Both the position numbers and the translations under genes were made by a program. Below are positions 44,506-61,523 of a stretch of 64,000 bases of DNA, one piece after another (position 1 is the first letter of the stretch; every line of letters starts with the position of its first letter). Where the stretch lies: positions 38,221-102,220 of the forward strand of contig JAFTXZ010000002.1 of NCBI GenBank assembly GCA_017461385.1. Direction: 5' to 3'. Under the pieces are notes generated by a model. It was not told where the DNA came from. It ran no database searches and saw only the letters and a program-made list of their open reading frames with translations. The DNA is from Clostridia bacterium (GTDB taxonomy: Bacteria > Bacillota > Clostridia > Oscillospirales > CAG-272).

Positions 44506-46476
44506 ATGGTAAATATGGATTTTACCAGAAAATTTGACGGTATACTTCAAAGGGCACAGCAGACCTATAAAACCTCTGTTAATGAGCAGGCACTCCTTTC
44601 TGCACAGCAAAGTCTGGAGCCAATAAAGAATCTTAGAAGTGGCAGGGATCTTTACGAAAAGCATATAAAAAACGCAGTTGGCTTAAGCCTTCGTATAGGC
44701 ATGAAGCGAATTGCTATCGACGCAGTAGTAAATAATCTCAGCTGTAAAATGGACGTGGCAATGGGCATGCTTGACAATATGGAAAGGGTTGCTATTGAAA
44801 ACAGCTTTCTTAAAACCTCAGCCTTGGCAATACGAATTAAGAATTTGTTGACAAGCCTGAAGTGGATATATGCTCAAAGTGATGAAATATACAGAACCTA
44901 TCAAAGTGATAGGGGTAAGAATGATGAATTTATTCTTTCCAAGGCGAAGGAAAAATATAGTGAGCTTTACAAGGAATGTGAAAAGCTCCCCTCTGAGGAG
45001 GAGGTATTTGAGGGAGTTTTATTCCCTAATATAAAGGCAGAATGTCGTGAGTTTATTGATAGCTTGATTGATGAGGTTAACGAAATTCACAAAAAGCTTA
45101 ATCGCGACAAAATCGGAAGTCGGGTTGACAATATTTTCAGCCCAATTCCACAGGAATGGAAGACCAGCTATAGCTTCCGTCCAACAATAAACGGCAATAA
45201 CAATAGCCTAATGGTTGTTGTTACACCATTTAAGGATGAATTTACGTTTCTTGCTTGCTCTTACGCACAACAAAACGGCTCAAGAGTGGCTGTGGTTGAT
45301 ATTACAGCAAGAGCCTTTGGAGATTGCTCGGCAAGCGAGATTAAGGAAATATTTAACTACGTGGGCACTACTGCGGACATAATTGCCATTACAGGTATGT
45401 CTATGTACCACGAATCAAATAAGAGCTATATTTATCAGTCCCTTTACGACGTAGCAAGAAGCAAAAAGGGCTTAAGTGTTTTAATTCACGATTTTAACAG
45501 TAAGCTTCCAGTTTGGAAGGAGGCAGAGGATGCCCTACCAGAGGCTTACGATATATTCTTTATGTATCTGACACTTCCAGGCTATAAAGAAACCCTTGAA
45601 GCGCTTAAGTATGGAAGCGTCCGTGAAATCGATGAGCTATTTGTTAAAAAGGAATGTGCGTTCCTTGGCTACGTAGGCGTAAACGAGGTAATAGCCATTC
45701 TGAAGAATGACTATACTAACGACTTTAGCGACACGGCATCAAGAAAATCTAGAGAAAATTACAGTAAAATTCTAGATTACATAACAAATCTAAAGAGCCA
45801 GTCTCAGCTGATAGGCGATGACTGGGGAAAGAGCTTTAATTGCTTCGAGGACGTAAGCTTTGAGCCCAAAAAGGACTTTGGTGGCTACGACTACGATACA
45901 AAAAGGCTTCTCAATCCTAAAAATCTTGATGCAATCATAAATATGGAAAACATTTTGTTGCCAGCAAGATGTGGACTAGCAGTAAATTACTGCTTGCTCT
46001 GTGGCGAGGACGTTTCAATTTGGCAGGAGCTAACTGATGAGGAAAGGCTTTATCGCCTAACCCTTGCAACAAAAACCGTTGGCAGACTACTAAATGCCCA
46101 ATATGACCCAACCGTTGAAATCAAGGAGATTGAGGGCAAGGCTGGTGCATATTGCTCAGGCGGTGGAAAGCTTATAGTTTACGGAAGCAAGGACGTTATG
46201 AATTTCTCTTGGCTTGCAGACGCCGTGTGCCACGAAATGTTCCATGCGTTTCAGCATACAGCCATGACTACTGGCTGGAAAAGATGGCATGCCAGTGAGC
46301 TTATGGTAACTCCTCAGCGCATTAAGGAATGGAATAAATGCCACGGTAAATATATCGACATAAACAAAAATGAGAATAGCTATTATGTCCAGGGCTTTGA
46401 GGTTGATGCTCGTGTATTCGCAGCAGAAACAACCGATGGCGTAACTAAGCATTGGCAAAAGCTAAATCTAGTTTAA
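44506..46476 (+). CDS. Protein with degenerate AAA-like middle domain and C-terminal HExxH zincin metallopeptidase
   Basis: AVCHEMFHAFQH plus downstream YYVQGFEVDAR (third-ligand Glu). Confidence 0.75.
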   Translation: MVNMDFTRKFDGILQRAQQTYKTSVNEQALLSAQQSLEPIKNLRSGRDLYEKHIKNAVGLSLRIGMKRIAIDAVVNNLSCKMDVAMGMLDNMERVAIENSFLKTSALAIRIKNLLTSLKWIYAQSDEIYRTYQSDRGKNDEFILSKAKEKYSELYKECEKLPSEEEVFEGVLFPNIKAECREFIDSLIDEVNEIHKKLNRDKIGSRVDNIFSPIPQEWKTSYSFRPTINGNNNSLMVVVTPFKDEFTFLACSYAQQNGSRVAVVDITARAFGDCSASEIKEIFNYVGTTADIIAITGMSMYHESNKSYIYQSLYDVARSKKGLSVLIHDFNSKLPVWKEAEDALPEAYDIFFMYLTLPGYKETLEALKYGSVREIDELFVKKECAFLGYVGVNEVIAILKNDYTNDFSDTASRKSRENYSKILDYITNLKSQSQLIGDDWGKSFNCFEDVSFEPKKDFGGYDYDTKRLLNPKNLDAIINMENILLPARCGLAVNYCLLCGEDVSIWQELTDEERLYRLTLATKTVGRLLNAQYDPTVEIKEIEGKAGAYCSGGGKLIVYGSKDVMNFSWLADAVCHEMFHAFQHTAMTTGWKRWHASELMVTPQRIKEWNKCHGKYIDINKNENSYYVQGFEVDARVFAAETTDGVTKHWQKLNLV

Positions 46477-46489
46477 TTCGGAGAGCAAG

Positions 46490-49400
46490 ATGAATAAAAA
46501 CGAGGTACTAAACAAGTATATTATCGAATTCCTCCACGTTGAGGAGGAATCCACTAATAGAATGATGGACTTGTATGGTACAGGAAAGTCAAGTAACCTA
46601 ACCATTGAGCTAGGGGATACTATGCCTGACCAAACAAGATTGTATTGTCGTATTGCAAGAATAATAAAGGAAAGAATAGGAAGACCGGCAGGAATTGCTC
46701 TAAGAGATAGCTCGCCACAAAAGGGAGTAGGTAACTTTGATGAGATAAATATTCTTGACTGGACCATTTCCAAGTATGAAAATGCCGACCTTGATACTAA
46801 GGTGAAGCTTCTTACAAAAATGGCAAATAGCTCCCTTGCAGAGCTAAAGCAAAAGGGAGTAAACTCCTTGTTCTTGTCCGTTGGCGCAATTAAATGGGAC
46901 GTGCCAGACCCAGATGACAATACACGATTTGTGAGCATTACAACACCATTGCTTATTTTCCCAATTAAGCTGGTGCGTTCAGGTAATGCTATGCCATATT
47001 GCATTGAGTTTGTGGCAGACGATATAAGATTAAATCCTTGTCTTATTGAGAAAATTGCCCGTGTTTATAGCAGGGAAACTGCCGACAAGCTACCGCTTCC
47101 AGTGGCAACGGAGGGCGCTGTTAATATTGCTGAGCTAGACGTGGAGCAATATTTTGCAAGCATTAACACCTTCATAGGTGAAAGCTTTAGAGATGCTCGC
47201 AGAGAATTTGCTTTGCAAAGCAATAAAATTGCAATTTCAAACTTCAACAGCATTGATATTGCAATGTATTACGACCTAATTAACCATAAAAAGGAGCTTG
47301 AGAGTAGCAGAATGATTGAAAAGCTATTCACAAGCGTTGACAGAGTAGATAATGAAATTATCGAAAAGCCACTTATCACTCTGCCTGCCGACACAGTGCA
47401 GGAGGGTATTCTTGCAAGAGCAGTTAATAACGACGACCTTATTATCAAGGGTCCTCCGGGCACAGGTAAAACCTTGACAATCGCTAACCTTGTTGCTTCA
47501 CTTATGGGCGCTGGTAAAAAGGTAATGTTCGTTTCTGCTAAAACCTCAGCCCTTGCCGAGGTATGCAATAAGCTTCCAGAGCATCTACGCCCATTTGTGC
47601 TAGAGCTATTCTGCGAAAGCGAAACCGAAGCTGCAAGCTTCAACGTAAACGACCTTATTGCTTCACTAAGAAAAGCAAGAGATGCAGAGCCTGTAAAGGA
47701 TATAGGACTTCTTAAGCAAGAAATCCAAGGCTATCAAAACAGCAAAAAGGATGCAGTTAGATATCTTGACGCATATAAGCGCTTCTATTTTACAGACCCA
47801 AATCCATTCACAGGTCGTGCCTTCTATTCAACAATCAATAATGCCCTTGTGTACAATGGCAACCCAAGATTAAGAGAGGCGTTTATTGGCAGAACCTCAA
47901 GAATTACCGTTGAGGACTACAATAAAATGCACGGCAAGGTTGAGCTTTGCGAGGCTAATCTAAATAATATCACAAATAACGGTGAAAAAATCGCAACCCT
48001 TAGTCCTTGGTATGATGCAGAAATAGCCGTTTCTCCAACCGCTATCGAGGGTGAGATTAACGACATTAAGGAAACTCTAAGGGATATATCTGAAAAGATA
48101 ACTGCCTTTATGAAGGAGCTTGGAATTGAGGATAAAAGAGATGAAATATCCCTTGCTCTATTTTCAAGAATTGTAGAGGCTGACATCAGCAAGGACAATA
48201 TTCAAAGAATTATAGAGGGAAGCATTCGCCCCTCGGTTATGCAAGCACTAAAGGAAAAAACAAGAGAGCTTGTTACTAACGATTTATTAAACGAATGCTT
48301 TAACTACGTAGTAAAGAACAAAATCACTATTAAGACAGATGATGAGCAGGGCTTAAGCGGACTTCTTGATGAGCTTGGTCAAGCAAGCTCAAATAAGAGC
48401 GCTAAGGAGCTTTTGGAAATCAAGAGCGCTATTGAAAAAATGAACCTTGCAGTGTCCGACTCCTGCGACGTGGTGCTTGACGTGTTTGAAAGCTACAGCA
48501 AAAAGGATGAGGAGCTGGACGAGGCTCAAAGAGCGTTAGATTTACTCGTTCCTGTGGTGGGCAAGCAAAGGGAAGCTCGTTATGAGCTACTGAATACTCA
48601 CTCACAAACGCTTTCTAAGTATTCTAAAAAGGATATGAAGAAGTTCTCCTTGTTTGAGGGTAAGGCTAAAAAGGCGTATGAGGAAATTTCCAGACTTCCA
48701 ATTGGCAAGGTACCGACTATTAATGAGGTAACTAAGGCTTGCGAAATCTTCGATGGTTTTAAGGTGATTGAGGCTGAAAAGAAGCAAATATTTACAAGAT
48801 TTGTTGAAATGTTCGGCGATGAGGTTACAGAAAAAGACGTAGCAAGCGTTGAGGAGTTTATCTCTGGCTGTGAGAGCAGAGAGGAAAAGAAAAAGCTTCT
48901 GAGAAGCTTGCTTGAGGAATCAAGGCTTGTGGAGGAAACTCTTGGACTCGTTACAAGTCCACTTGAAAGAGTGAGCGAGGAGCTAAAGTGTAAAACTGCT
49001 GACGAGCTTGCTGACGTGGTCCTTGGCGCTATCGAGCGTGCTAAGATTGAAAAGCTATACGAGACAGCCTGCAAGGAGCTTGGTCTTGTTGGTATGGATG
49101 AGCTTGTAAGTCTTGAAACGCCTGAAACGATTATTTGCATCAAGGAGCTTAGCGAATATATCGTGTTAAACGATACAAGAGCTACTGCAATTTTTGAGTT
49201 TATTAAGCAAAGAGATGATGTTGGTAAGGGATTGATTAAGCTTGAAAGAATGGCTATGAAGTATGGACTCAATCCAATTTATCGTAGCATTTCTAAGCTA
49301 ACCCTTGTTGATATAGATCGCTTTGTTGAGGATATTGGCGATGCCAGAATCAGCAACGCCTGCCTACAGCTTAAGGCGACTATGGACGAGGATAATATCG

Positions 49401-51103
49401 GCTGCCTAAGATCATTCCTTGAATTCTTTGCTCTGGGAATTGTAAAGCTTCCAAGACGTGATGAAATCAATATGACACAGCTATTTGAGTATGCATACTT
49501 TAATGCCTGCACCATTGATGGTGAAAATAAGCTAACTAAGGAGCGCGCATCTGTTTTCGACGGCACGGCTCTTAGAGCTATGGAGAAAAACTATATTGCT
49601 TCAAATACAATGCTTGCTCGCGCGCAGGCTAGGTATATAGCCCATCAACTATGTGTAAGCAATAAGCACGATCCTAAATATGCATTCTTGAACAACGAGC
49701 GTCCTGTAAGAACAAACGCAAGGGTGTTCTTTAAGGAAAATGCAAAGGCAATTCTTTCCCTTGCAAGATGCGTTGTATTATCACCATATTCCGTAAGCGT
49801 ATTTATGAAGCCAAAGGAATATTTTGACTACGACGTTTTGATTGTTGATGAGGCAAGCCAGTTGCCTGCAAGAGTAATTTTACCTTGTGCAATTCGTGCA
49901 AAGCAGGTTGTGCTTGTAGGTGACCAAAATCAGATGCCACCAATCCTTTACTTTGTAAGAAAGGATAACGCATCGGCAGATGAGGATGATGAGGAGGAGT
50001 GCAACAATATTCAACAGGTTGACTCAATCCTTGACCTTGCAATTAAAAACAAATCAATTGATGCAGTGGGACTTGTATGTCACTATCGTAGTAACAACGA
50101 GAGCCTTATTGCATATTCTCAAAAGAGATACTACGACGATATGACCACATTCCCAACAGCAAATCCTGAAAAGGATGGCAAGGGACTAGTTGACGTATTC
50201 GTTGACGGCGGCCACGCGGGTGGCGTAAATATGGTTGAGGCAAACAAGGTTGTTGAGCTTATCGAGAAGCATTTTGATGAGTATTATGATGAGGATGCGA
50301 AGATGCTTCGTGAATCCTTGGGCGTAGTTGTATTCGGTCAAAAGCAGCTCGCTTGTATAGATAAGCTTCTTGATAAGAGCCCTGTTAGGTCGAAAATCAA
50401 TCTCGCAAGAGCAAACACTAAGGAAAATCCCGATAAAACCTACTTTATCACAGCAGTTGATGGGGTACAGGGTCAGGAAATCGAGCATTTGATTATTTCC
50501 TTAACATACTGTAAGAGAGACGCTCACGGAGTGGTTAAGCAGAGCTTTGGTATGCTTAACAGAGTAGGAAACGGCGAAAGACTTGGTGAAAGAATATTCA
50601 ACGTTGCCGTAACGCGTGCAATTAAATCCTTGTCCTTTGTACATTCAGTTCATTCCTACGAGATTACAAAGCCATCTCTTTCACACCTTCGTGAATATCT
50701 CGAAATGCTGGAGGCGCTTGGTAACAAAAACGAGGATACAGCACCTAAGTTTGTATCTAATATGGATAAGGTCGACCAATTTGCACTCAGCGTTCAAGCT
50801 GAAATTTCAAAGCTAATTTCCGATAAGGAAAGAATAGTATACGGCTACGGTGTAACTGAAAAATCCTTGAGAATTCCAATTGCAATTTTATCAAAGGATA
50901 AAACACACGCGTCCTTGGCTATATTCTGTGAAACAGATATAACAGATGGTGACAGATACGTGGACAGCTGGGTAAATTACCCTGAAACTATGGAGGGACG
51001 TGGCTGGAAGCTACACAGAATGTATATTCACGACTGGTATTTTAACCACGAGGCAGAGCTAAAGGCACTTAAGAATGCCATCTCTAGCGTAAGCGAAGAA
51101 TAA
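46490..51103 (+). CDS. DUF4011 + SF1 (Upf1/DNA2-like) helicase + Vsr/MTES_1575-like C-terminal domain
   Basis: GVNSLFLSVGAIKW...PLLIFPIKL (DUF4011), KGPPGTGKT, VDEASQ, VGDQNQMPP, HYRS, VDGVQGQE, FNVAVTRA, GWKLHRMYIHDW. Confidence 0.88.
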   Translation: MNKNEVLNKYIIEFLHVEEESTNRMMDLYGTGKSSNLTIELGDTMPDQTRLYCRIARIIKERIGRPAGIALRDSSPQKGVGNFDEINILDWTISKYENADLDTKVKLLTKMANSSLAELKQKGVNSLFLSVGAIKWDVPDPDDNTRFVSITTPLLIFPIKLVRSGNAMPYCIEFVADDIRLNPCLIEKIARVYSRETADKLPLPVATEGAVNIAELDVEQYFASINTFIGESFRDARREFALQSNKIAISNFNSIDIAMYYDLINHKKELESSRMIEKLFTSVDRVDNEIIEKPLITLPADTVQEGILARAVNNDDLIIKGPPGTGKTLTIANLVASLMGAGKKVMFVSAKTSALAEVCNKLPEHLRPFVLELFCESETEAASFNVNDLIASLRKARDAEPVKDIGLLKQEIQGYQNSKKDAVRYLDAYKRFYFTDPNPFTGRAFYSTINNALVYNGNPRLREAFIGRTSRITVEDYNKMHGKVELCEANLNNITNNGEKIATLSPWYDAEIAVSPTAIEGEINDIKETLRDISEKITAFMKELGIEDKRDEISLALFSRIVEADISKDNIQRIIEGSIRPSVMQALKEKTRELVTNDLLNECFNYVVKNKITIKTDDEQGLSGLLDELGQASSNKSAKELLEIKSAIEKMNLAVSDSCDVVLDVFESYSKKDEELDEAQRALDLLVPVVGKQREARYELLNTHSQTLSKYSKKDMKKFSLFEGKAKKAYEEISRLPIGKVPTINEVTKACEIFDGFKVIEAEKKQIFTRFVEMFGDEVTEKDVASVEEFISGCESREEKKKLLRSLLEESRLVEETLGLVTSPLERVSEELKCKTADELADVVLGAIERAKIEKLYETACKELGLVGMDELVSLETPETIICIKELSEYIVLNDTRATAIFEFIKQRDDVGKGLIKLERMAMKYGLNPIYRSISKLTLVDIDRFVEDIGDARISNACLQLKATMDEDNIGCLRSFLEFFALGIVKLPRRDEINMTQLFEYAYFNACTIDGENKLTKERASVFDGTALRAMEKNYIASNTMLARAQARYIAHQLCVSNKHDPKYAFLNNERPVRTNARVFFKENAKAILSLARCVVLSPYSVSVFMKPKEYFDYDVLIVDEASQLPARVILPCAIRAKQVVLVGDQNQMPPILYFVRKDNASADEDDEEECNNIQQVDSILDLAIKNKSIDAVGLVCHYRSNNESLIAYSQKRYYDDMTTFPTANPEKDGKGLVDVFVDGGHAGGVNMVEANKVVELIEKHFDEYYDEDAKMLRESLGVVVFGQKQLACIDKLLDKSPVRSKINLARANTKENPDKTYFITAVDGVQGQEIEHLIISLTYCKRDAHGVVKQSFGMLNRVGNGERLGERIFNVAVTRAIKSLSFVHSVHSYEITKPSLSHLREYLEMLEALGNKNEDTAPKFVSNMDKVDQFALSVQAEISKLISDKERIVYGYGVTEKSLRIPIAILSKDKTHASLAIFCETDITDGDRYVDSWVNYPETMEGRGWKLHRMYIHDWYFNHEAELKALKNAISSVSEE

Positions 51104-51117
51104 GAGGAGACAATAGA

Positions 51118-51873
51118 ATGAAGAAGAACGAAAAAATGATTCTTGGCAACCCTGAAAGCAACAGCAGTAGCAGAGTAAGGGTTAGCGAAAAGGAAATGCT
51201 TAAGGCTAGTATTGAGCTTAAGGAGCAGGAAACCAATAAAAAGCTTATAGAGCTAGCAGAAAACCTTAAAAAGGTTCAAAATTCTAAAAGCACAAACAAG
51301 CAGGTTGTTGTAGAAACACTTTCTCAAACAATCAACCTTATAGCTCAATTTAAGGACGTTATCCTTGAAATTAAGGCGCTTGAGCTTGCTTTTGAGGCAA
51401 TAGCTGATACTTTCTCAATTGTTGACGACGTATTTCAGGTTATCGACCTAATTATGAATCAACAAATTGCACAGGATACAGGTGCATTCTCTGGCTTAAG
51501 AGCTAGAATGAACGTAAATAAGATGGCAAGATCCATCAAGAGACGCTTCTCAAAGATGCAAAATACCTTTATGGTAATTCCAAAAATGATGGGAATTATG
51601 GGAGGCTTCAATAATATTCTTGGCAAATCCATGGGTAAGATGAGCAAGAAGAATAAGCAAAGCGCTCAAAGAGACGGCAGAGAGTTTTCAGGTGGACTTA
51701 CTCCTGAGGCTATCGAAATGCTCAAGGAGCAGGGCGTTGATATGGAGCAGGGCGAGAGCTCTGGCTCTGGCGCAAGCTCTGGAGGAAATGGTGGCACTCC
51801 GGGTGGAGGACAGGGTGGTTCAAGCTCTGGCGCATCTGACAACGGTGGAAGCAACCCATTTGACGGTATTTAA
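51118..51873 (+). CDS. Helical/coiled-coil protein with Gly/Ser-rich tail
   Basis: Long amphipathic helices, Met-rich basic segment, tail SSGGNGGTPGGGQGG...NPFDGI; GAGGAG RBS. Confidence 0.78.
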   Translation: MKKNEKMILGNPESNSSSRVRVSEKEMLKASIELKEQETNKKLIELAENLKKVQNSKSTNKQVVVETLSQTINLIAQFKDVILEIKALELAFEAIADTFSIVDDVFQVIDLIMNQQIAQDTGAFSGLRARMNVNKMARSIKRRFSKMQNTFMVIPKMMGIMGGFNNILGKSMGKMSKKNKQSAQRDGREFSGGLTPEAIEMLKEQGVDMEQGESSGSGASSGGNGGTPGGGQGGSSSGASDNGGSNPFDGI

Positions 51874-51877
51874 TTTG

Positions 51878-51911
51878 TATGCTATGCGCGAGCCAGCTTG
51901 TGCATAGCATA
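51878..51911 (+). other. Intra-operon 16-bp stem-loop without U tract
   Basis: TATGCTATGCGCGAGC-CA-GCTTGTGCATAGCATA (with G-U pairs). Confidence 0.6.
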
Positions 51912-51944
51912 GTCCAAAAGCTATAAAGAAATGGAGATATAATA

Positions 51945-53174
51945 ATGGGAAAGGTAAATAGAGGAGATATCGATAATAACGATAACGGTATCGATCCAAG
52001 AAAGTCCGCAAACGACGCTGCAAATCAAGACCTTCAGGCAAATATTGAGGAATGCTATAGATTGCGTGATGCCATAAAGGCTCAAAGAGCTAAGGATAGC
52101 AAGAATATGACTCAAGAGCAAAAGATGGAGCTAAGAAAGCTCTATAACAAGCTTTTGCGTACAGCTAAAAAGGTAGTTGACCAAGCGCAGGACGAGGCTA
52201 CGATTAAGCTATTCAAGGGATTGATGGATACAGCCAGCTCAAGAGCAAAGGAATACGGCTCTGCTATTGTTGGTGAAGCTCCAAAGACAAGAATGGAGGA
52301 CATCAAGGGACTTGATAACGTAAAGGAGCTTGTAACAAGCTTCCTGTTTATGCTTAAGCACCCAGATGTAGTTAAGTACTATAACATTGAGGGTGGCTGC
52401 AATATGCTTATGTATGGCGCACCTGGTACAGGTAAGAGTATGTTTGCTGAAGCAGTTGCAAACGAAATGGGCTTACCAATCTTTAAGGTTACCCCTGCGG
52501 ACATTTTTAAGCCCTATGTAGGTGAGTCCGAGGCTTCAATCAGAGAGCTATTTGCAGAGCTTGACACCTGTGATGAGGGTGCAGTTTTGTTCATAGATGA
52601 GTGCGAATCAATATTCAGTGCAAGAAAGCAGGATACACAGGACTACAAGGCAGGCGTAACAACTGAGCTTTTGCAGGCAATGAACGGATTTGGTGTTGAT
52701 AGACGTAGAATTATTACAATCGCTGCAACAAACTGTCCAGAGCAGATTGACCCTGCATACCTACGTTATAAGCGTTTCTCACATATCGTACACGTAACTC
52801 CTCCGGACGAAACTGCTATTGAGGCGATTGTTAGAGGAAAGCTAAGACATACAAAGAAGGGAGAAATGGCAGAGGAACCACACAAAAGACCTCTTAAGCT
52901 TGCAGACGACGTATCTATCAGATACATAGTTGATCAGCTAATGGCAAGAGAGGAAATTGTAAATGGTGTACCAAGCTATTACTATACCCCTGCTGATGTA
53001 AACGGTATCGTGGAGGAGGCTTGTCGTTTGGCTCTTGTTCAGGTTGAAAGAAACAACACAGGCGAGACAATTCCACTAACCAGAGAAATGTTTGACAAGG
53101 CGTTTAAGAAGGTTCCACCAAGCGTAAGTCGTGCAAAGTTTGACGAACTTGATAGCTTTAGAAAGGAAGACTAA
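51945..53174 (+). CDS. Single-domain classical AAA+ ATPase (Cdc48/Vps4-like) with helical, possibly MIT-like, N-terminus
   Basis: YGAPGTGKS, pore loop PYVGESE, FIDECES, AATNCPEQIDPAYLRYKRF, C-terminal FDKAFKKVPPSVS helix. Confidence 0.9.
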   Translation: MGKVNRGDIDNNDNGIDPRKSANDAANQDLQANIEECYRLRDAIKAQRAKDSKNMTQEQKMELRKLYNKLLRTAKKVVDQAQDEATIKLFKGLMDTASSRAKEYGSAIVGEAPKTRMEDIKGLDNVKELVTSFLFMLKHPDVVKYYNIEGGCNMLMYGAPGTGKSMFAEAVANEMGLPIFKVTPADIFKPYVGESEASIRELFAELDTCDEGAVLFIDECESIFSARKQDTQDYKAGVTTELLQAMNGFGVDRRRIITIAATNCPEQIDPAYLRYKRFSHIVHVTPPDETAIEAIVRGKLRHTKKGEMAEEPHKRPLKLADDVSIRYIVDQLMAREEIVNGVPSYYYTPADVNGIVEEACRLALVQVERNNTGETIPLTREMFDKAFKKVPPSVSRAKFDELDSFRKED

Positions 53175-53186
53175 GCTTCGCTTTTT

Positions 53187-53223
53187 AGGAGTAAAGGCAA
53201 TTGTGCCTTTGCTCCTTTTTTTT
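53187..53223 (+). terminator. Intrinsic terminator ending the 10-gene operon
   Basis: AGGAGTAAAGGCA-ATTG-TGCCTTTGCTCCT followed by a T run. Confidence 0.85.
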
Positions 53224-53556: not shown

Positions 53557-53585
53557 TTGACAAGCAAAATCTTTTTGTATATAAT
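53557..53585 (+). promoter_or_regulatory. Consensus sigma-A promoter of the MoxR-vWA operon
   Basis: TTGACA-17 bp-TATAAT. Confidence 0.8.
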
Positions 53586-53644
53586 GTTATATATTATAAA
53601 ATAATGCTAAGGTTAGTAATTATTATTTGACAAAAGGATACAAA

Positions 53645-55069
53645 ATGGATAAGGAATTTTTAAGGATTAAGCAGAGGGCTAAGCTTCTTTTGATAATCAA
53701 TGCTTGCGTTTTCGGAATAATCGCAGGCTTGGTCGGCTTAGGACTCCCTCTTTTGCTTATGAAGCTGATTACCAATAGCTTCAATATGGTAGTGTGCGTT
53801 GTCTGCTTGCTTTCTTGCTTGCTTGTAACTGCATCCTTGATATTGATCATTGGCTGGCCAAGAAATGCGACTCTTGCAAAAAGCCTTGATAGTAAAATTT
53901 CAAGAGAGCGTGTACAGACCATGCTTTTTTTCAAGGACAAGGATTTACCAATTTATAATCTACATAAGGAAAAAACCGCTGAAATGCTATCAGCATTGCC
54001 ACCACAGGGATTAAGCCTAAAATGTATTGTTACTATGGTAATCGCAGGCGTGCTTAGCGTGGCACTTGCTGTAACAGCTCTTGCAATTCCGCTTAAGCCT
54101 GTAGTTAACGATGATGATACAACGACCGATGAGGTGTTTGTGTTTACAGAATGGCAGAAGGAAAGACTGAAGGCGCTTATTGCTTACGTTGATAATTCAA
54201 GCATTGTGACAAATGCAAAGACAACTGCTCTGAAGGAGCTAAACGACCTTTACGAGGAGCTTTTTACTGTAACAACAAGACCTGATATGGTAAAGGCAGT
54301 TACCGATTGTATGGTGGTAATTGATGACAAAATTGAGGAAATAAATGTATATGAGGAGATTATGGGAGCGCTCATAGCTGAGAGCGAAAGCGTAATGTCC
54401 TTAGCAAAGGCACTTGGAAAGGTTACTGAAATTCCAAACAAGGATACATATAGAGTACTTCTTGAGGATTACCTAACAAAGGAGCCGGAATACTTCAGTA
54501 ATCTTGCAAACGGTATTATGCTGGCAGGACTAAGGGCAACCGCCTATAAGGATTCGGCAATCTTTAAGTCTGTTGCACAAATGCAAGACGCATTTACTAA
54601 GCTTGCAGGCGCACTGACAGGCGTTAGTGATGAGGAGGCAAGGGCGCTTCTTATTAACGCAACAATGGACGCTTCAGTTGAATTGGTTTTTGAAGCCTCA
54701 AGTCAGGAAGCGACCAACAGAACCGTTGGCGATACAATTATTTCAGAGCTTATGTTTATATTCGATATCAAGAGAGCTGAGCTTCCAGAAACTATTCTGG
54801 ATAACGGCGTTTCTTATGAGGATAGCAGTGGCAACTACGAGGAGAAAGAGGATGACAAGCTTTCCGATGGTGGTGGTGGCCGTGATGAGCTAAACTTTGG
54901 AAGCGATGATGAGGTTTACGACCCCGACCAGCAGGCAAGGGTAAAATACAAGGAAATTTTTGTAAAATACAGAAATATGAAGAATGAAAAGGTGAATGAG
55001 GGCTCACTGCCTGAGGAGTACTCAAAAATGATTGATGAATACTTCACCTCGTTATATACAGGCGACTAA
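53645..55069 (+). CDS. Membrane protein (3 TM plus helical domain) typical of MoxR-vWA operons
   Basis: Three TM segments; C-terminal LPEEYSKMIDEYFTSL motif; start ATG 53645. Confidence 0.75.
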   Translation: MDKEFLRIKQRAKLLLIINACVFGIIAGLVGLGLPLLLMKLITNSFNMVVCVVCLLSCLLVTASLILIIGWPRNATLAKSLDSKISRERVQTMLFFKDKDLPIYNLHKEKTAEMLSALPPQGLSLKCIVTMVIAGVLSVALAVTALAIPLKPVVNDDDTTTDEVFVFTEWQKERLKALIAYVDNSSIVTNAKTTALKELNDLYEELFTVTTRPDMVKAVTDCMVVIDDKIEEINVYEEIMGALIAESESVMSLAKALGKVTEIPNKDTYRVLLEDYLTKEPEYFSNLANGIMLAGLRATAYKDSAIFKSVAQMQDAFTKLAGALTGVSDEEARALLINATMDASVELVFEASSQEATNRTVGDTIISELMFIFDIKRAELPETILDNGVSYEDSSGNYEEKEDDKLSDGGGGRDELNFGSDDEVYDPDQQARVKYKEIFVKYRNMKNEKVNEGSLPEEYSKMIDEYFTSLYTGD

Positions 55070-55092
55070 ATTAAAAGGTAAAGGAAGCTATT

Positions 55093-56103
55093 ATGGAAAA
55101 TATAGAATTGAATGAAATTGAAGCAGGCATCGTTCAAAGCGTTGCACAATTTAGCAAGAGTGTTGCTCAAATCAAGACAGAGCTTGCAAGGGACGTTGTA
55201 GGACAAGAGGAAATAGTTGACAATGTAGTAATCGCGATTATCGCAGGTGGTAACGTATTGCTCGAGGGAGTACCAGGTGTAGGTAAAACCCGTCTTGTTC
55301 GTTCACTTAGCAGAGTATTGAAGCTCCCATTCTCACGTATTCAGTTTACACCTGACCTTATGCCATCAGACGTAACAGGTGCAAATGTAGTCGAAAAGGA
55401 TGCAGAGGGAAGGCTTTCAACCATTTTCCGTGAGGGACCAATTTTTGCAAACCTAGTGCTGGCAGACGAAATCAACCGTGCTACTCCAAAGACTCAATCA
55501 GCTATGCTTGAGGTAATGCAGGAGCATAAGGTAACAGTAGGTAAAAGCACGTACCCAATTAACGAGCCATTTTTCGTTCTCGCAACTGAAAACCCAATTG
55601 AGCAGGATGGTACATACCCCCTACCAGAGGCGCAGATGGACCGCTTTATGTTCAAGCTAATAATGGAGTACCCATCAGATGCTGAGCTTAGAAACATCGT
55701 TAAGATGACACAAAAGACAATGGCAGAAACTGCCGAGGGCGTTGTTGACGGAGCAAAAATTCTTGAAATGAGAGCTCTTGCTTCTCAGGTTCCTGTAATA
55801 GATGAGGTTATCGATTATGCAGTAAGCCTTGTTTCAGGCACACACCCAGAGCTTGAGCAAGCATCAAGCACAGCCAAGAAGTACATAAAGTACGGTGCAT
55901 CACCACGTGCCGCACAGGCTCTTATTACTGCTGCTAAGGTAAGAGCGCTAATCAACGGCAACCTAAATGTGGCTTATGAGGATATTGCAGCTCTTGCAAA
56001 GCCAGTACTTCGCCACAGAATAAAGGTAAATTATACAGCTATCAACGAGCATCTTGATACAGATGCAGTAATTGAACTACTACTAAAGGAAATCAAAAAA
56101 TAA
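55093..56103 (+). CDS. moxR: MoxR-family AAA+ ATPase
   Basis: LEGVPGVGKT, RIQFTPDLMPSDVTG, LADEINRATPKTQSAMLE, ATENPIEQDGTYPLPEAQMDRF, GASPRA. Confidence 0.95.
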   Translation: MENIELNEIEAGIVQSVAQFSKSVAQIKTELARDVVGQEEIVDNVVIAIIAGGNVLLEGVPGVGKTRLVRSLSRVLKLPFSRIQFTPDLMPSDVTGANVVEKDAEGRLSTIFREGPIFANLVLADEINRATPKTQSAMLEVMQEHKVTVGKSTYPINEPFFVLATENPIEQDGTYPLPEAQMDRFMFKLIMEYPSDAELRNIVKMTQKTMAETAEGVVDGAKILEMRALASQVPVIDEVIDYAVSLVSGTHPELEQASSTAKKYIKYGASPRAAQALITAAKVRALINGNLNVAYEDIAALAKPVLRHRIKVNYTAINEHLDTDAVIELLLKEIKK

Positions 56104-56105
56104 TA

Positions 56106-56990
56106 ATGAGTAAGCTAATCGTAAGTGAGGAATTCCTTTCACAGATTGAGCTACTCCAAATGATGATAAAGAATAACGTTGCTGGACAGTTTGGAGGAAA
56201 TCACCGTAGTAAAACCTACGGCTCGTCCTGCGAATTTGTCGACCATAGAGACTACATGGAGGGAGACGACATTTCAAAGATAAATTGGAATGCCTACGCC
56301 CGCTTTGACAAGCTATATCTGAAGCTATTCTTAGACGAAAGACAGATGCATACAAGAATTTACATTGATGCAAGTCGCTCTATGCAATACGGGGATAGCA
56401 AAAAGGCAGAGCAGGCTATTAAGGTTGCAGCAACGCTAGCATATCTTTCGGTTTGTGAAATGGATAAGGTTTCCGTCTATGCTATTACAGGTGGCAGGGT
56501 TGAGGAAATCATAAGTGGCATGGTAGGAAAAGAAAGCTACCTTGCCTCAATAAATAAGCTAAACGACATAGTATTTGAGGGCGAAAGTCGTATCAGTGAG
56601 GCAATTTTGCCATCACGTGTTGGATATGGCGACGGTATGTCCGTAATTATCTCAGACTTCTTGACAGATGAGGATTACGAAAGGGCAATCGACCACTTAA
56701 GTGATAAAAAGCGTCACGTGCTGTGCGTTCAGCTTTTGTCAAAGGAGGAGCTAAATCCACAAATTCGTGGAAAGCACCATCTGTATGACTCTGAAAATAT
56801 AGAAAAAACCTATAGAAAGAATATCGACAGAGAAAGAGCAAGAGCCTATAAGGAAGCGCTAAAGTACGTAACCGATAGAATAGGCAATCATTGCGCAGCT
56901 CGTGGGGCAGATTATATTCTTGCCAGTGCAGAGGACACAATGCAACAGATATTCTTTGATAAGCTAGCTTCTAGGGAGGTACTCAAATGA
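56106..56990 (+). CDS. DUF58 domain protein (vWA-like)
   Basis: GSSCEFVDHRDYMEGDDISKINWNAYAR, IDASRSM, VIISDFL. Confidence 0.92.
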   Translation: MSKLIVSEEFLSQIELLQMMIKNNVAGQFGGNHRSKTYGSSCEFVDHRDYMEGDDISKINWNAYARFDKLYLKLFLDERQMHTRIYIDASRSMQYGDSKKAEQAIKVAATLAYLSVCEMDKVSVYAITGGRVEEIISGMVGKESYLASINKLNDIVFEGESRISEAILPSRVGYGDGMSVIISDFLTDEDYERAIDHLSDKKRHVLCVQLLSKEELNPQIRGKHHLYDSENIEKTYRKNIDRERARAYKEALKYVTDRIGNHCAARGADYILASAEDTMQQIFFDKLASREVLK

Positions 56991-58825
56991 GCTTTTTGTA
57001 CCCCTTAGGACTATTGGGACTGATTGGAGTTCCAATTCTTATCATAATTTATGTAATCAAAAACAAGTATATGGAGCAAACCATCTCCACCACATATTTG
57101 TGGAGACTTAGTGAGCGCTTTGAGAAAAAGCGTCGCCGTCGTAATCCATTGGAGGGCTTGCTACCACTTATCCTGCAAATCCTGACGGTTGTGCTTGTAT
57201 CACTTACGATTGCGCATCCCGTATTCAGCATTCCAAACGGTGCAAGCGAGTACACCTTTGTTCTTGATTCCTCGGCCAGCATGAACACTGAAAGGGACGG
57301 GGAGACACGCTTCCAAAGAGGCGTTTTGGAAATTGAAAAATTGATAAATGAAGCATCTGAGGGAAGCACCTTTACTCTTGTTCAGGCAGGAAGCACCACC
57401 TCGGTTCTTTGTGAAAAAATAAGCGACAAGGATATGGCGCTTGAGCTTTTATCTAACGCAAAGCCATCACATAGCATCTCGCAGGAGATTGATGCAATCG
57501 GTATTGCACAGGGTTATTTTGATGAAAATCCAGGTGCCAAAACATATTTTGTAACCGATACAAGCTACGAAAGCGTGGACAACCTTTCAGTAATCAACAC
57601 AGCACAAGGCGAGGTTAACTATGCCTTAAGTCAGGTGGAGCATAGCTTTGGCTCCTCTGGTTATCTTTCCGTTTCTGGTAAGGTGAGCGTTTTTGGTAAG
57701 GATAAGGACAAAATTCACCTTGCACTAACTGTTGATGGAAGTGAGCTTGAAAGACGTGAAATAGAGGTTTCAGCTGGCACTTGGAGCGACTTTTCCTTTA
57801 GTACAGAGCTTACAAGCTTTGAAAGCCTGAGCGTTGCCATTGTGGAAAAGGACGGCTTGAGCCTTGATAACGAGCAAATCATATACGATATAAAGAGCTC
57901 ATCTATTTATAAAACACTTATCGTAAGCGACAGACCCTTCTTTATTGAAATGGCTGTAAAGCATCTTGGTTATAGAAACGTAACAGTTTTGCCAACTAAG
58001 GCATACAAGGAGCAAACAGGCTTTGGATTATACGTCTTTGACTCCTTTAGTCCAGCCCAAGCCCCAACTGATGGTACAATATGGCTAATCAATCCAGATG
58101 GAAAGCTTGACAATATGGGCTTTGGTGTCCGTGACGTGGTTAACGTAGAGGGTGGAGATGGTGAGCTTGTGCTTACCAATTCATCATCAAGTCTGGCAAA
58201 TCGCTTGATAAAGCATCTGGACGGCAAGAGCATTTATATTTCAAGGTATGTGGAATGTGGCTTGTATCGTAATTTTACAACGTTACTTTCATACAACCAA
58301 AATCCAATTGTCTTTGCAGGCACTACGTTGAGCGGAGCTAGGGAAATTGTATTTGCCTTTGACCTTCACGATTCAAATATTGCCTTGACAACTGACTATG
58401 TAATTTTAATGGGCAATTTGCTAAAATACGCCTTCCCGGATATAATTGAGGAGGTAAGCTACACTATTGGTGACAAGGCAGAAATCAATTTGCCAGCAGG
58501 CACTCAAAGCGTAAGGGTAGATAGCCCACTTAAGAACAGCTTTTATCTAAATGCAGGCTCAAGCATTGCAGAGCTAGAGCTTACAGAGGTAGGAGAATAT
58601 ACAATAACTCTTGACAACGATACGGTAATTCACGTGTATGCGTCGCTTGCCGAGGAGGAGTCAGAGATAAATAAGGTAGCCACAAGCCTGTCCTTGCAGG
58701 GCGAAGCAACGGAGCAGGGCTTAGACGGAATATTTGATCCAATGATTATAGTATTCATTCTTTTGGCTATTGTATTCTGCATAGATTGGATGGTTTATTG
58801 CTATGAAAAATATCAACTTCGATAA
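56987..58825 (+). CDS. BatA-like N-terminal membrane domain plus vWA protein
   Basis: MSFLYPLGLLGLIGVPILIIIY...STTYLW, MIDAS VLDSSASM, C-terminal TM; ATGA overlap with DUF58 gene. Confidence 0.88.
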   Translation: MSFLYPLGLLGLIGVPILIIIYVIKNKYMEQTISTTYLWRLSERFEKKRRRRNPLEGLLPLILQILTVVLVSLTIAHPVFSIPNGASEYTFVLDSSASMNTERDGETRFQRGVLEIEKLINEASEGSTFTLVQAGSTTSVLCEKISDKDMALELLSNAKPSHSISQEIDAIGIAQGYFDENPGAKTYFVTDTSYESVDNLSVINTAQGEVNYALSQVEHSFGSSGYLSVSGKVSVFGKDKDKIHLALTVDGSELERREIEVSAGTWSDFSFSTELTSFESLSVAIVEKDGLSLDNEQIIYDIKSSSIYKTLIVSDRPFFIEMAVKHLGYRNVTVLPTKAYKEQTGFGLYVFDSFSPAQAPTDGTIWLINPDGKLDNMGFGVRDVVNVEGGDGELVLTNSSSSLANRLIKHLDGKSIYISRYVECGLYRNFTTLLSYNQNPIVFAGTTLSGAREIVFAFDLHDSNIALTTDYVILMGNLLKYAFPDIIEEVSYTIGDKAEINLPAGTQSVRVDSPLKNSFYLNAGSSIAELELTEVGEYTITLDNDTVIHVYASLAEEESEINKVATSLSLQGEATEQGLDGIFDPMIIVFILLAIVFCIDWMVYCYEKYQLR

Positions 58826-61523
58826 TCCATACCTTCTGCTTGTACTAATACCGCTACTCGTAGCGATTTTAGTTCCATTCTTCATCGCCATAAGAAAGGA
58901 AAACAAATCAAAAAGCGTAATAGCATCACTGTGTATTCATCTTGTAATGGCTATTTGCGTATCTCTTGCAATTGCGGGCATTACCTATAAGGCAACCGTA
59001 ACAAGGACAGAGGTTTACGTTGTAGCCGATGCATCATATTCAACAAACGAAAAGCTAGATTTAGTTGATGAATATATAAGGAAGGTGCAATCCTCCTTGC
59101 CATCAAACACTCAAATGGGTGTGGTAGCCTTTGGTAAGGATTATGTGCTCCACAATGGCTTAGGGGATAGCCTGACAAGCATAAGGGACGCACAAATAGA
59201 TAATAGTGCTACAAATATTTATAGTGCCGTAGACTACGCCTCGGGCTTGTTCAGTGATAACGTTGTCAAGCGTATCGTTTTAATAACTGATGGTGCAGAT
59301 ACGGACGAAAAGGGCATTGATAATATGATTGCTACCGTGGAAAGACTTCATGCGGAGGGAATCCAAATCGATGCAATGTACATAGATAGCAATCTTTCGC
59401 AAAGCACAAGCGAGGCGCAAATTTCAGGTGTAACCTTCAATAAAAAAACCTATCTAAATCACAAAGCTGAGGCAAGCGTGCTTGTACAAAGCTCTGCTGA
59501 TATGAAGGGTGCATTCTTGACACTTACTCAAAGTGGCACACAGATTACAAGAAAGCCAATTGCACTTTCAAAGGGCTTCAACGTGTTTAATTTTGAAATG
59601 CCAACTGATAAGGCAGGGGAATTTGATTACTCCCTCTCTCTCACGCTTCAAAGTGATGCTACTGAGGAGAATAACCATTATGCCTTTACACAAAGCGTTT
59701 CTGATGAGCTTAATGTTTTGTTCATCAGCCAATCAAAGAAGGATCTTGACGGGGCGATTGCTCTTTATGGTGAAAACTCTAAGATATATGCCTATATGGA
59801 CGTTTCTCGTGTTGAGCTAAAGGAAATCAGAAAGTACGAGAATATAACAGTGCTTGAAAAGCTTCCTATGACAATTGAGGAGCTTTGCAAGTATGATGAA
59901 ATTATCTTGTCTGATATGGACGTAAGAGAAATCGAAAACGTTTCCTACTTTATTGATCTTGTCGGCAAGGTTGTTTCTGAGTTTGGCAAAAGCCTTGTAA
60001 CAATAGGCGATATGCAGATTCAAAACAAAACTGATGAATCATTAAAGAAGCTAGAGGAAATGCTTCCTGTACGCTTTGGAAATGATGATGAACAGCCAAA
60101 GCTATATGGAATAGTAATTGACAGCTCACGAAGCATGTACACTGCCTCTCGTCTTGAGGTTGCAAAGAAGGCAGCCTGCTATCTTGTAAATATGCTCAAC
60201 GAGGGAGACTGGGTTGCAGTAATTCAATTCTCAGGTGAAAGCTTCGTTGTTCAAGACCCGATAGAGATAGATAATAAGCAAGAAATTATAGACGAAATCA
60301 ACACAAAGGTTGTGCCAATGCAGGGTACCTACATCGGCGGAGCTCTTGACAAAATCTATAATGAATTTTTCAGAAGCGACGTTGCAACAGAATATAGCTC
60401 AAAGCAGCTTATGCTCATAAGCGACGGCTTGACCTTCACTGCAGAAACTAAGGACGCAGGCGATATGGCTGAGCTTATGTTCAATGACGGAATAGTAACC
60501 TCAGTTCTTAATCCATACAGCAGTGAGATAGATGGTATAAACCTACTTAAGGAGGTTGCCTCCAAGGGAGGTGGAAAGTACTACGAAATATCAGGTGAGG
60601 CAGAGCTTGAAAAGGTTATGTTCTCTGATATTGCAGGCGACGTTACAGAAAGCGTTGTTGAAAAGGAGCTTCAGGTTAGCATAAACAGAAAGGACGACGT
60701 GCTTGATGGCATTGAGTCCGTGCCTAACGTTTACGGCTTTATTCAGTCAACTGCTAAGCCAAGCTCAAGCGTAGTTTTGACCGTTTCACCAAAGAATCCT
60801 GATATAAAGGTTCCATTGTATGCTTACCGTGATTATGGTAATGGAACAGTTTCAAGCCTTACCACCTCACTAAGTGGTGATTGGGTTAAGGATTGGGCAT
60901 CTGATTCTGGCAAGCTACTTATGAATAACATTTTTAACACTAACGTTCCAGAGGAAAAGATAGATTATCCATATCGTCTTGAAATTGAGGACCTTGGTGG
61001 ACATATTAACGTTCAAATAACACCACTTGTAATAAATCCAAATGCGACGGTAACTGCAACGCTTACCCTGCCAAATGGAGAAATTACAGAAAATAAGCTT
61101 GTGTTTGATTCCGAAAAGTATTTCTATAGCTTTAAGGCAGAGGACACAGGTAAGTATAAGCTTAGCATTAAGTATTCCTATTTAGATTACAACCTAACAG
61201 ACGAGGACAACAAGGAGGCGTTTGTAACCTATGAGTCTGTGAACTGCTTTAACAGGTCCTACTCTAAGGAATACGACAGGTTTGAGATTTTCTCACCTGC
61301 AAGCCTTAACTCAACCATAAGACACAGAGGCACAGTAACCGAGGATGGTACAATTAACCTAGAGCCTAGGGAAGAGGACGTTGTGGTTTATACCTTAGAC
61401 CTTGTTCCAATTCTTACAGCCTTGGCAGTTATCCTCTTTGTGGTTGATATAATTGTCAGAAAGATTAAGCTTGCTGATATAACAGGCTTATTCAAGGGTA
61501 AAAGCAAGGAGGTAAAGAAATGA
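58803..61523 (+). CDS. Membrane protein with two vWA domains
   Basis: FDNPYLLLVLIPLL N-terminus, MIDAS VADASYST and VIDSSRSM, LITDG and LISDG, C-terminal TM. Confidence 0.88.
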   Translation: MKNINFDNPYLLLVLIPLLVAILVPFFIAIRKENKSKSVIASLCIHLVMAICVSLAIAGITYKATVTRTEVYVVADASYSTNEKLDLVDEYIRKVQSSLPSNTQMGVVAFGKDYVLHNGLGDSLTSIRDAQIDNSATNIYSAVDYASGLFSDNVVKRIVLITDGADTDEKGIDNMIATVERLHAEGIQIDAMYIDSNLSQSTSEAQISGVTFNKKTYLNHKAEASVLVQSSADMKGAFLTLTQSGTQITRKPIALSKGFNVFNFEMPTDKAGEFDYSLSLTLQSDATEENNHYAFTQSVSDELNVLFISQSKKDLDGAIALYGENSKIYAYMDVSRVELKEIRKYENITVLEKLPMTIEELCKYDEIILSDMDVREIENVSYFIDLVGKVVSEFGKSLVTIGDMQIQNKTDESLKKLEEMLPVRFGNDDEQPKLYGIVIDSSRSMYTASRLEVAKKAACYLVNMLNEGDWVAVIQFSGESFVVQDPIEIDNKQEIIDEINTKVVPMQGTYIGGALDKIYNEFFRSDVATEYSSKQLMLISDGLTFTAETKDAGDMAELMFNDGIVTSVLNPYSSEIDGINLLKEVASKGGGKYYEISGEAELEKVMFSDIAGDVTESVVEKELQVSINRKDDVLDGIESVPNVYGFIQSTAKPSSSVVLTVSPKNPDIKVPLYAYRDYGNGTVSSLTTSLSGDWVKDWASDSGKLLMNNIFNTNVPEEKIDYPYRLEIEDLGGHINVQITPLVINPNATVTATLTLPNGEITENKLVFDSEKYFYSFKAEDTGKYKLSIKYSYLDYNLTDEDNKEAFVTYESVNCFNRSYSKEYDRFEIFSPASLNSTIRHRGTVTEDGTINLEPREEDVVVYTLDLVPILTALAVILFVVDIIVRKIKLADITGLFKGKSKEVKK

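Follow-up and report, generated by a model that had tools for sequence, protein, structure and literature searches.

In a 64,000-nucleotide (nt) stretch of contig JAFTXZ010000002.1 from a Clostridia bacterium (the window), a small gene for a helical protein of 251 amino acids (aa) lies directly upstream of a gene for a 409-aa AAA+ ATPase. We give an even chance to the interpretation that these two proteins are a client and its dedicated AAA+ unfoldase and that they form the last core module of an operon of 8-10 genes. The initial annotation of this DNA had proposed that the pair is analogous to ESCRT-III and Vps4, that is, to a helical polymer and the ATPase that takes it apart. As described below, the two genes are conserved as a pair and the analogy holds, whereas the searches for kinship with ESCRT-III or Vps4 did not support it.

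The two genes form a conserved pair

Both genes are plus-strand open reading frames (ORFs) with ATG start codons (Table 1). The small protein ends in NPFDGI and the ATPase contains LRYKRF and PPSVS, as quoted in the initial annotation. The small gene is preceded by a putative ribosome-binding site, AGAGGAG, 7 nt 5' of its ATG, and the ATPase gene by GGAG, 8 nt 5' of its ATG.

To follow the pair across genomes, we scanned one genome per species with the ATPase alignment, which gave 195 stretches encoding relatives, and kept the best 80 loci. An ORF recognized by a hidden Markov model of the small-protein family (alignment A1, described below) lies directly upstream of the ATPase gene, on the same strand, in 77/80 loci. 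This adjacency is far beyond chance, and the claim that the two genes belong together is thus borne out. The gap between them has a median of 17 nt and is no longer than 150 nt in 73 of the 77 loci; it exceeds 150 nt in 4, among them L076 and L077 (889 nt each). Three loci lack an upstream partner. In L011 and L045 the ATPase gene borders on a contig end, and L085 (10028-11035) has a solitary ATPase gene that lacks its first ~70 codons, has neither partner nor operon beside it, adjoins a gene for a BspA-type surface protein and is probably a remnant. Two loci, L021 (8370-9880) and L034 (8453-9843), carry two tandem small-protein paralogues upstream of the ATPase gene.

When the window was compared with contigs of other public runs, third codon positions accounted for 7 of the 9 variable places listed for the small gene and for 20 of the 21 listed for the ATPase gene (our own tally, over the listed places only; 5 further places lie outside the listing). 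Because the differences between runs are mostly at third codon positions, we concluded that both genes are coding sequences under purifying selection. One metatranscriptomic run contained 2 contigs within the small gene (51197-51387 and 51600-51882), which is no proof of transcription, and no contig on the ATPase gene, which is uninformative.

Eight co-directional, tightly packed genes (30036-51103) precede the pair in the window. Because an intrinsic terminator follows the ATPase gene (53187-53216) and a perfect TTGACA-17-TATAAT promoter of the sigma-70 type (53557-53585) stands ahead of the next gene, the ATPase gene is the last of its operon, as the initial annotation had it. Operon neighbors were counted in flanks of 10 kb at the 80 loci. 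At these loci the pair ends a conserved operon of 8-10 genes. Synteny extends over all ten genes in two genomes, G005 from the same genus and G259 from another family of the class. The order is permuted in L056, where the pair stands ahead of the gene for an Hsp70-like protein, yet beside the Hsp70-like, SNF2 helicase, Cys-rich and MBG-domain genes. A short form of the operon comprises the genes for the SNF2 helicase, the Cys-rich protein, the MBG protein, a 422-aa protein, a coiled-coil protein, the small protein and the ATPase. The gene for a protein with an HExxH motif is found in 53/80 loci and that for a DUF4011 helicase-nuclease in 57/80. Both are missing from L013, L018, L024, L042, L047-L049, L051, L054, L058, L061, L064, L065, L068 and L079, and L037 and L059 have the HExxH gene without the helicase gene. 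Because the pair is kept while the helicase and HExxH genes vary among these forms, it belongs to the constant core of the operon.

The spacer between the two genes holds a predicted RNA stem-loop (Table 1), and none of 200 shuffled sequences folded as well. Hairpins of other sequence occur at the same place in L004 (~8449-8474; -26.2 kcal/mol, z -4.4) and L009 (~9928-9973; -23.4 kcal/mol, z -4.9), so that a spacer stem-loop is common to three related genomes; elsewhere the spacer is mostly just ~17 nt. The element may be a processing or stabilizing hairpin that gives unequal amounts of the two proteins.

The small protein has a helical body, a disordered linker and a conserved C-terminal tip

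An exhaustive phmmer search of 1.84 billion representative sequences with the 251-aa protein found 36 proteins at E <= 1e-3, 6 of them at <= 1e-10, and 35/36 were 228-268 aa long. A protein of 1,356 aa with 8 matching stretches (P0128) was left out of the family because it is repetitive and of unrelated architecture. Alignment A1 consists of the window protein and 35 phmmer relatives. A word-index search returned one near-identical protein only. The window protein had no noteworthy match in Pfam, NCBIfam, PADLOC or PDB sequences, the ESM Atlas gave no usable match, the A1 profile found nothing below E 0.09 among PDB sequences, and none of the PHROGs families was matched by more than 1 of the 36 members. 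The protein belongs to an unannotated family. No fused or longer forms were found in the search, which is weak evidence.

The AlphaFold2 model made from the 36-row alignment has a mean predicted local distance difference test score (pLDDT) of 73.8 and a predicted template modeling score of 0.63. It consists of five helices, of which the first two form a long hairpin, and a tail that is disordered from about residue 209 (Table 1). In the A1 alignment, the helical body and a very basic middle precede a low-complexity Gly/Ser/Pro/Ala linker, whose length varies, and a short conserved tip. Taken together, the model and the alignment describe an elongated helical bundle with a long disordered linker behind it and, at the C-terminus, a conserved acidic-hydrophobic peptide. 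The earlier description of a mostly helical protein with a flexible tail was accurate. Among the 77 partner proteins encoded at the loci, 69 have [IVLFY][DSG]D[IVL] in their last 9 residues and 60 have an I[DS]DI tip; the tip is thus conserved while the linker varies. Median net charges over the 36 sequences are 0 for helix 1, -7 for helix 2, +8 for helix 3 and +6 for helix 4. Helix 2 is acidic and hydrophobic, and helix 3 is strongly amphipathic, with a hydrophobic moment of up to 0.66.

The ATPase has an intact motor of the classic clade

The Pfam AAA model (PF00004) matches the ATPase at residues 154-284 with an E value of 7.2e-34. Conservation was assessed in A2, an alignment of 32 sequences of the ATPase family (Table 1). 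T262, N263, R274, K276, R277 and F278 of the second region of homology are invariant. Because Walker A, Walker B, sensor 1, the pore loop and R274-x-x-R277 are all invariant or nearly so, the motor is expected to be active and to thread polypeptides.

The arginine-finger segment reads L-R-[YFH]-K-R-F, with R274 and R277 invariant in 32/32 sequences, and so carries the classic-clade insert of two residues. AAA+ proteins of the meiotic clade have adjacent arginines and no such insert. When this segment was compared with PDB sequences, Cdc48/p97 led the list, the first single-domain chain was FtsH and Vps4 was absent from the best 60 matches listed. The initial annotation had itself cautioned that the arginine finger is spaced as in Cdc48 and FtsH, and since the R-x-x-R spacing is invariant, the caution was correct and argues against kinship with Vps4. 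The highest NCBIfam score was that of CDC48 (135.6 bits, 1.9e-39), followed by PAN (1.4e-33) and FtsH (1.5e-31), and CdvC reached 105 bits against a cut-off of 650. Other signals point toward Vps4. With the whole ATPase, Vps4 was the first single-domain PDB chain listed, at 106.6 bits, level with Cdc48 D2 (106.5 bits). Pfam Vps4_C (PF09336) matches residues 358-408 of the window ATPase with 16.6 bits (E 0.0079), short of its cut-off of 21.3, and, at E <= 0.01, 28/32 members of the family (best 1.4e-6); the end of Cdc48 D2 also aligns with this region. The signals are therefore mixed. Because all NCBIfam scores are far under the family cut-offs, the ATPase falls in none of the named families, and we read it as a separate family within the classic clade.

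The region ahead of the motor was modeled from 41 N-domains (alignment A3) and is predicted to form helices at residues 18-47, 57-80 and 84-103. It is helical, as the initial annotation had said, but ~105 aa long rather than ~75. Pfam MIT was absent from the 6 families matching the window N-domain at E <= 1 and from the 25 families that at least 2 of the 41 N-domains matched. Foldseek found no match at E <= 0.001, with MIT domains at ranks 4 (spastin), 12 (calpain-7), 17 (MITD1) and 28 (Sulfolobus CdvC). A wide structure search placed calpain-7 first (8uc6_B; the three search values were 10.1, 6.4 and 91), Sulfolobus CdvC ninth (2w2u_B; 8.8, 2.1 and 72 of 74), spastin 20th (3eab_A; 8.4, 2.5 and 80 of 89) and the Vta1 N-domain 40th (8.0, 5.9 and 87). 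MIT chains are thus among the best structural matches but are tied with many designed three-helix bundles, so that the matches do not distinguish an MIT fold from a generic bundle.

R64, Y67 and R80 are conserved in the N-domain and could face the acidic tip of the partner. Most ATPases of the family start with M-A/S-G-I/F/L-G-K/R ahead of the bundle, whereas the clade of the window has MGKVNR (51945-51962). Variants of the tip and of the N-domain both follow clades; they are inseparable from shared descent, and we drew no inference from them.

Proposed mechanism and alternatives

In the mechanism that we propose, the ATPase ring would recognize the free C-terminal tip of the small protein, most likely through the N-domain, and the flexible linker would be fed into the pore and pulled. 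Pulling would unfold the small protein or extract it from itself, from another operon protein, from nucleic acid or from a membrane. This unfolding would switch or reset a larger system, as Vps4 recycles ESCRT-III or as TRIP13 resets HORMA proteins in the cyclic-oligonucleotide-based antiphage signaling system (CBASS). We consider this larger system likely to serve in anti-phage defense or another kind of conflict, a reading based on the two helicases of the operon, one of which has a restriction-endonuclease-like end, and on the rare and patchy distribution of the system. A more elaborate version, which we put forward tentatively, is that the small protein is a self-associating bundle on a membrane, on DNA or on an operon protein, and that an AAA+ motor with an MIT-like N-domain reads I-D-D-I-V and strips the bundle off. 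The pair would then be a nonhomologous counterpart of ESCRT-III/Vps4 or HORMA/TRIP13 and would act as the timer of a membrane-anchored two-helicase immune system of gut Clostridia.

Several observations weigh against the unfoldase-client interpretation or its defense context. The tip of the window protein (PFDGI) and those of its 2 nearest relatives (PYGGI and PSEGI) depart from the family motif, and the tip may therefore matter less in this lineage. No protease partner of the unfoldase is evident beside it. The tip might instead dock on another component. The coiled-coil protein of the operon has similar acidic tips, and the client of the ATPase could be that protein, or both. The defense label comes from domain content and patchy distribution only, a large putative membrane/MBG protein is atypical of known defense systems, and the neighbors in the window are mostly housekeeping genes and do not make an obvious defense island.

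The tips of the coiled-coil protein deserve a closer description. Its homologues (~500-580 aa) end in conserved tips that follow a charged disordered region. In the long form of the operon these read [IVL]-x-L-S-D-D-D-K/N (e.g., LSDDDK), and in the short form I-N/T-D-I-V (e.g., INDIV) or IISTITKK (L013, L024, L034-L039, L069-L073 and other loci). The coiled-coil protein and the 251-aa protein may share a docking site. The two families were also considered as paralogues, and this was rejected (hhalign probability 1.6%).

These tips bear on an alternative that we consider rather unlikely, though it deserves serious weight, in which the small protein is a recruiting adaptor, its tip docks another component, and the ATPase acts elsewhere, for example on the coiled-coil protein or on a foreign protein. 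Comparable tips on two operon proteins suggest a docking site shared by several proteins. An I-D-D-I-V tip after a Gly/Ser/Pro linker is also in the style of the C-terminal tip of SSB, which recruits helicases, and of the EEVD tail of Hsp70, which binds TPR proteins, and the operon encodes two helicases, an Hsp70-like protein and a possible Sel1/TPR-like protein (the 422-aa protein). The likeness ends at the low-complexity linker and the acidic-hydrophobic end, the body of the small protein being a helical bundle and not an OB fold or a chaperone. Moreover, the Sel1/TPR matches of the 422-aa profile to PDB were weak (E 0.02-0.06), with nothing significant among them. The ATPase gene, rather than the helicase-nuclease gene, is the tightest and most constant neighbor of the small gene (77/80 loci versus 57/80), and the long disordered C-terminus is what a pore-threading motor requires, since AAA+ unfoldases need a long disordered region to thread their substrates through the pore.

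It is improbable that the small protein is a self-inhibited effector, active on membranes or nucleic acid, that the ATPase opens on a trigger or keeps harmless. The amphipathic basic helices 3 and 4, folded back on the acidic hydrophobic helix 2, would suit such a role, but the protein has no transmembrane-like segment and the pLDDT of the basic helices is just 60-77.

Comparison with ESCRT-III/Vps4 and with other AAA+ systems

That the pair is a true bacterial ESCRT-III/Vps4 system, with the small protein as a divergent membrane-polymerizing subunit and the ATPase as a Vps4/CdvC relative acting through MIT-MIM contacts, is in our view very improbable. Several features are in its favor. The helices of the partner (~43, ~59, 19, 37 and 9 residues), followed by a tail with a terminal motif, resemble the ESCRT-III layout of long hairpin, shorter helices and flexible C-terminus, a layout that is common in helical proteins generally. 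The ATPase, like Vps4 and CdvC, is a single-ring enzyme with a small N-terminal three-helix bundle, MIT is among its tied best N-domain matches, and Vps4_C matches it weakly. The genes are neighbors, as are cdvB and cdvC in archaea. The tandem paralogues in L021 and L034 and the large putative membrane protein encoded in the operon would also suit such a system.

The profile and fold searches brought nothing specific in support of kinship. In Pfam scans of the individual members, Snf7 (PF03357) matched 1/36 partner proteins, at E 0.021, and PspA_IM30 (PF04012) matched 0/36. The Pfam Snf7 and PspA models found no match in the genome of the window at E <= 0.001, whereas in a control the PspA model matched in 9/14 named genomes. 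When A1 was aligned by hhalign with 6 PspA proteins from genomes of the same class, the probability was 0.2%. Foldseek with the partner model gave no match at E <= 0.001 in PDB or in the viral library BFVD. The initial annotation had suggested comparing the fold with Snf7, CdvB, PspA and Vipp1, and no ESCRT-III, PspA or Vipp1 chain is among the matches listed by Foldseek or by a wide VIA search, which does not by itself exclude the fold; re-examination of the 55 Foldseek matches added none. The charge layout is reversed as well. In ESCRT-III the N-terminal hairpin is basic and the C-terminal helices are acidic, whereas the partner has an acidic helix 2 and basic helices 3 and 4. The I-[DS]-D-I-[VL] tip is unlike MIM1 and MIM2, the N-domain and the ATPase core are just ~10 residues apart, and the context of helicases and a nuclease is not that of a division or membrane-repair locus. 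Together with the R-x-x-R spacing and with CDC48 outscoring CdvC, these results led us to conclude that the helix pattern of the partner is compatible with ESCRT-III and that kinship is not supported. A hairpin protein beside an AAA+ ATPase with a three-helix bundle is not sufficient to define a bacterial ESCRT machine.

What stands of the proposed polymer/disassemblase analogy is its logic. Because the pair is conserved, the partner has a hairpin, linker and tip, and the ATPase motifs are intact, a client/unfoldase logic like that of ESCRT-III and Vps4 is reasonable. We therefore regard the pair as analogous to ESCRT-III/Vps4 in logic and architecture rather than as a demonstrated homologue.

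Cdc48/p97/VAT, PAN/Rpt and FtsH give the best matches and share with the ATPase the arginine-finger spacing and an aromatic-hydrophobic-Gly pore loop. The ATPase differs from them in having one ATPase domain, no fused or adjacent protease and scores far under their cut-offs, and its N-domain matches none of theirs (the Cdc48 N-domain, the coiled-coil/OB region of PAN and the membrane anchor of FtsH). The TRIP13-HORMA pair of type III CBASS, in which TRIP13 resets its HORMA client by pulling a terminal tail, is likewise an AAA+ remodeler beside a small client in a multi-gene operon, in its case a defense operon. TRIP13 is of another AAA+ lineage, however, its PADLOC model scored only 5e-11 against 5e-27 for IetA, and the operon encodes neither a HORMA protein nor a cyclase. 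IetA is the best PADLOC match of the ATPase (5.1e-27), and the NCBIfam IteA model gave 2.3e-24. IetA-IetS is said to be a defense pair of Gao and colleagues from 2020. The IteA match covers the generic ATPase core and reached 86.2 bits against a cut-off of 510, and a Pfam scan found no subtilisin-like IetS neighbor in the operon; membership in this system was therefore rejected. CoCoNuT systems are McrBC-based and include Hsp70-like and SNF2 proteins (PMC11090510), and assignment of the operon to them was rejected because it encodes neither McrB nor McrC.

Full-text literature searches returned no description of the pair or of the operon, and we regard the pair as a variation on the AAA+ unfoldase with a tail-tagged client, within an apparently undescribed multi-gene system. 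If the unfoldase-client interpretation is true, the pair is a compact, genetically isolated case of an AAA+ motor that chooses one client via a tethered C-terminal peptide, and it is the regulatory module of a system of 8-10 genes.

Other genes of the operon

At least 5 of the operon proteins have no family assignment. The 673-aa protein encoded by the first gene, for which we use the Hsp70/actin-fold label with reserve, has no Pfam match and, searched alone, no PDB match. Its L056 homologue matches Pfam HSP70 at E 2e-4 (20.1 bits versus a cut-off of 20.6), and the gene is conserved in G005 and G259. The SNF2 helicase matches BrxHI/BrxHII (1.8e-24) and DrmD (3e-23) in PADLOC. The gene for the Cys-rich 580-aa protein lies beside the SNF2 gene in 19/80 loci, where the 10-kb flank extends to it. 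In the 422-aa protein, C4, C9, C26 and C29 of the zinc-ribbon-like motif are invariant in alignment A6. The 656-aa protein has no Pfam or PDB match by profile search. Besides the residues of its HExxH motif, C550, R605, W609, Y626 and E632 are invariant in 23 sequences, and it may represent a new zinc-peptidase-like domain. The MTES_1575 match of the 1,537-aa protein (2.2e-7) is under its cut-off, and in PADLOC this protein matches PDC-S37 (1.2e-117) and Hhe (2.3e-52).

Table 1. Features of the operon, of the gene pair and of the two proteins (window positions)
Feature	Position	Strand	Basis or detail
673-aa putative Hsp70/actin-fold ATPase-like protein, first gene (weak label)	30036-32057	+	NCBIfam HscA E 0.0013, far under cut-off
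SNF2-family helicase, 958 aa, Cys-rich C-terminus (from translation)	32072-34948	+	ResIII 5e-14, SNF2-rel_dom 7e-8, Helicase_C 7.5e-6
580-aa protein, Cys-rich C-terminal half	34967-36709	+	No Pfam, PADLOC or NCBIfam match
1554-aa protein, hydrophobic N-terminus (from translation), repeats ending in MBG domains	36732-41396	+	MBG_2 1e-18, MBG_3 2.6e-5
422-aa protein, N-terminal CxxC...CxxC zinc-ribbon-like motif, possible Sel1-like repeat	41411-42679	+	Alignment A6
584-aa charged, probably coiled-coil protein, Gly-rich tail ending SDIDDDN	42693-44447	+	No family found
656-aa protein, HExxH near C-terminus, possible zinc peptidase	44506-46476	+	H576, E577, H580 invariant, 23 sequences
1537-aa DUF4011/SF1 helicase/REase_MTES_1575-like protein	46490-51103	+	AAA_11 5e-14, DUF4011 1.8e-11, AAA_12 6e-10
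251-aa helical partner (A1 family), whole gene	51118-51873	+	36 representative relatives at E <= 1e-3
Predicted long helical hairpin, residues 13-55 and 61-119	51154-51474	+	Model, pLDDT ~85-95 over residues 21-120
Two basic helices, residues 125-143 and 150-186	51490-51675	+	Model, pLDDT 60-77; charge medians
Short confident helix, residues 196-204	51703-51729	+	pLDDT 84-88 for residues 191-210
Disordered Gly/Ser-rich linker, residues 205-245	51730-51852	+	pLDDT ~48-53
C-terminal tip NPFDGI, degenerate form of family I-[DS]-D-I-[VLIA]	51853-51870	+	Family alignment
Intercistronic RNA stem-loop	51878-51911	+	15 pairs, no U-run, -24.9 kcal/mol, z -4.0
409-aa AAA+ ATPase, whole gene	51945-53174	+	Pfam AAA; 690 relatives at E <= 1e-10
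N-domain, predicted three-helix bundle, residues 18-103	51996-52253	+	41-row-alignment model, pLDDT 77.7
Walker A GAPGTGKS, residues 158-165	52416-52439	+	G158, P160, G161, T162, G163, K164 invariant 32/32
Pore loop 1 K-P-Y-V-G, residues 189-193	52509-52523	+	K189, V192, G193 invariant; Y191 in >= 90%
Walker B VLFIDE, residues 214-219	52584-52601	+	D218, E219 invariant
Sensor 1 and second region of homology ATN...DPAYLRYKRFS, residues 261-279	52725-52781	+	R274-x-x-R277
PPSVS at start of last helix	53115-53129	+	P392 invariant
Intrinsic terminator closing operon	53187-53216	+	13-pair stem, 6 G-C pairs, T-run

Distribution and surroundings

The ATPase was found in 2/41 related genomes and the partner family in 2/399 scored genomes of the class. 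Plasmid and phage collections held generic AAA relatives only, at ~30% identity, and no member of the ATPase family. The system is rare and patchy in gut Clostridia and has so far been found only in uncultured gut Clostridia.

The genes downstream of the operon differ between lineages. In the window, the promoter at 53557-53585 precedes a separate operon (53627-61523), whose products are a 480-aa protein that is hydrophobic in its N-terminal region, a MoxR-type AAA_3 ATPase (2e-60) and three further proteins of 294, 612 and 906 aa. G005 and L009 have the 480-aa and MoxR genes in the same position, and among the loci, membrane-protein and MoxR neighbors are found only in L009 and L010. Upstream of the pair's operon there is a lone gene for a TraG/VirD4-type coupling protein (21521-23218; T4SS-DNA_transf, 8e-28). 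The scan of that region, which covered 22 ORFs of >= 120 aa, found no other conjugation gene. Four BspA-type leucine-rich-repeat proteins are encoded at scattered positions in the window (4711-27207).

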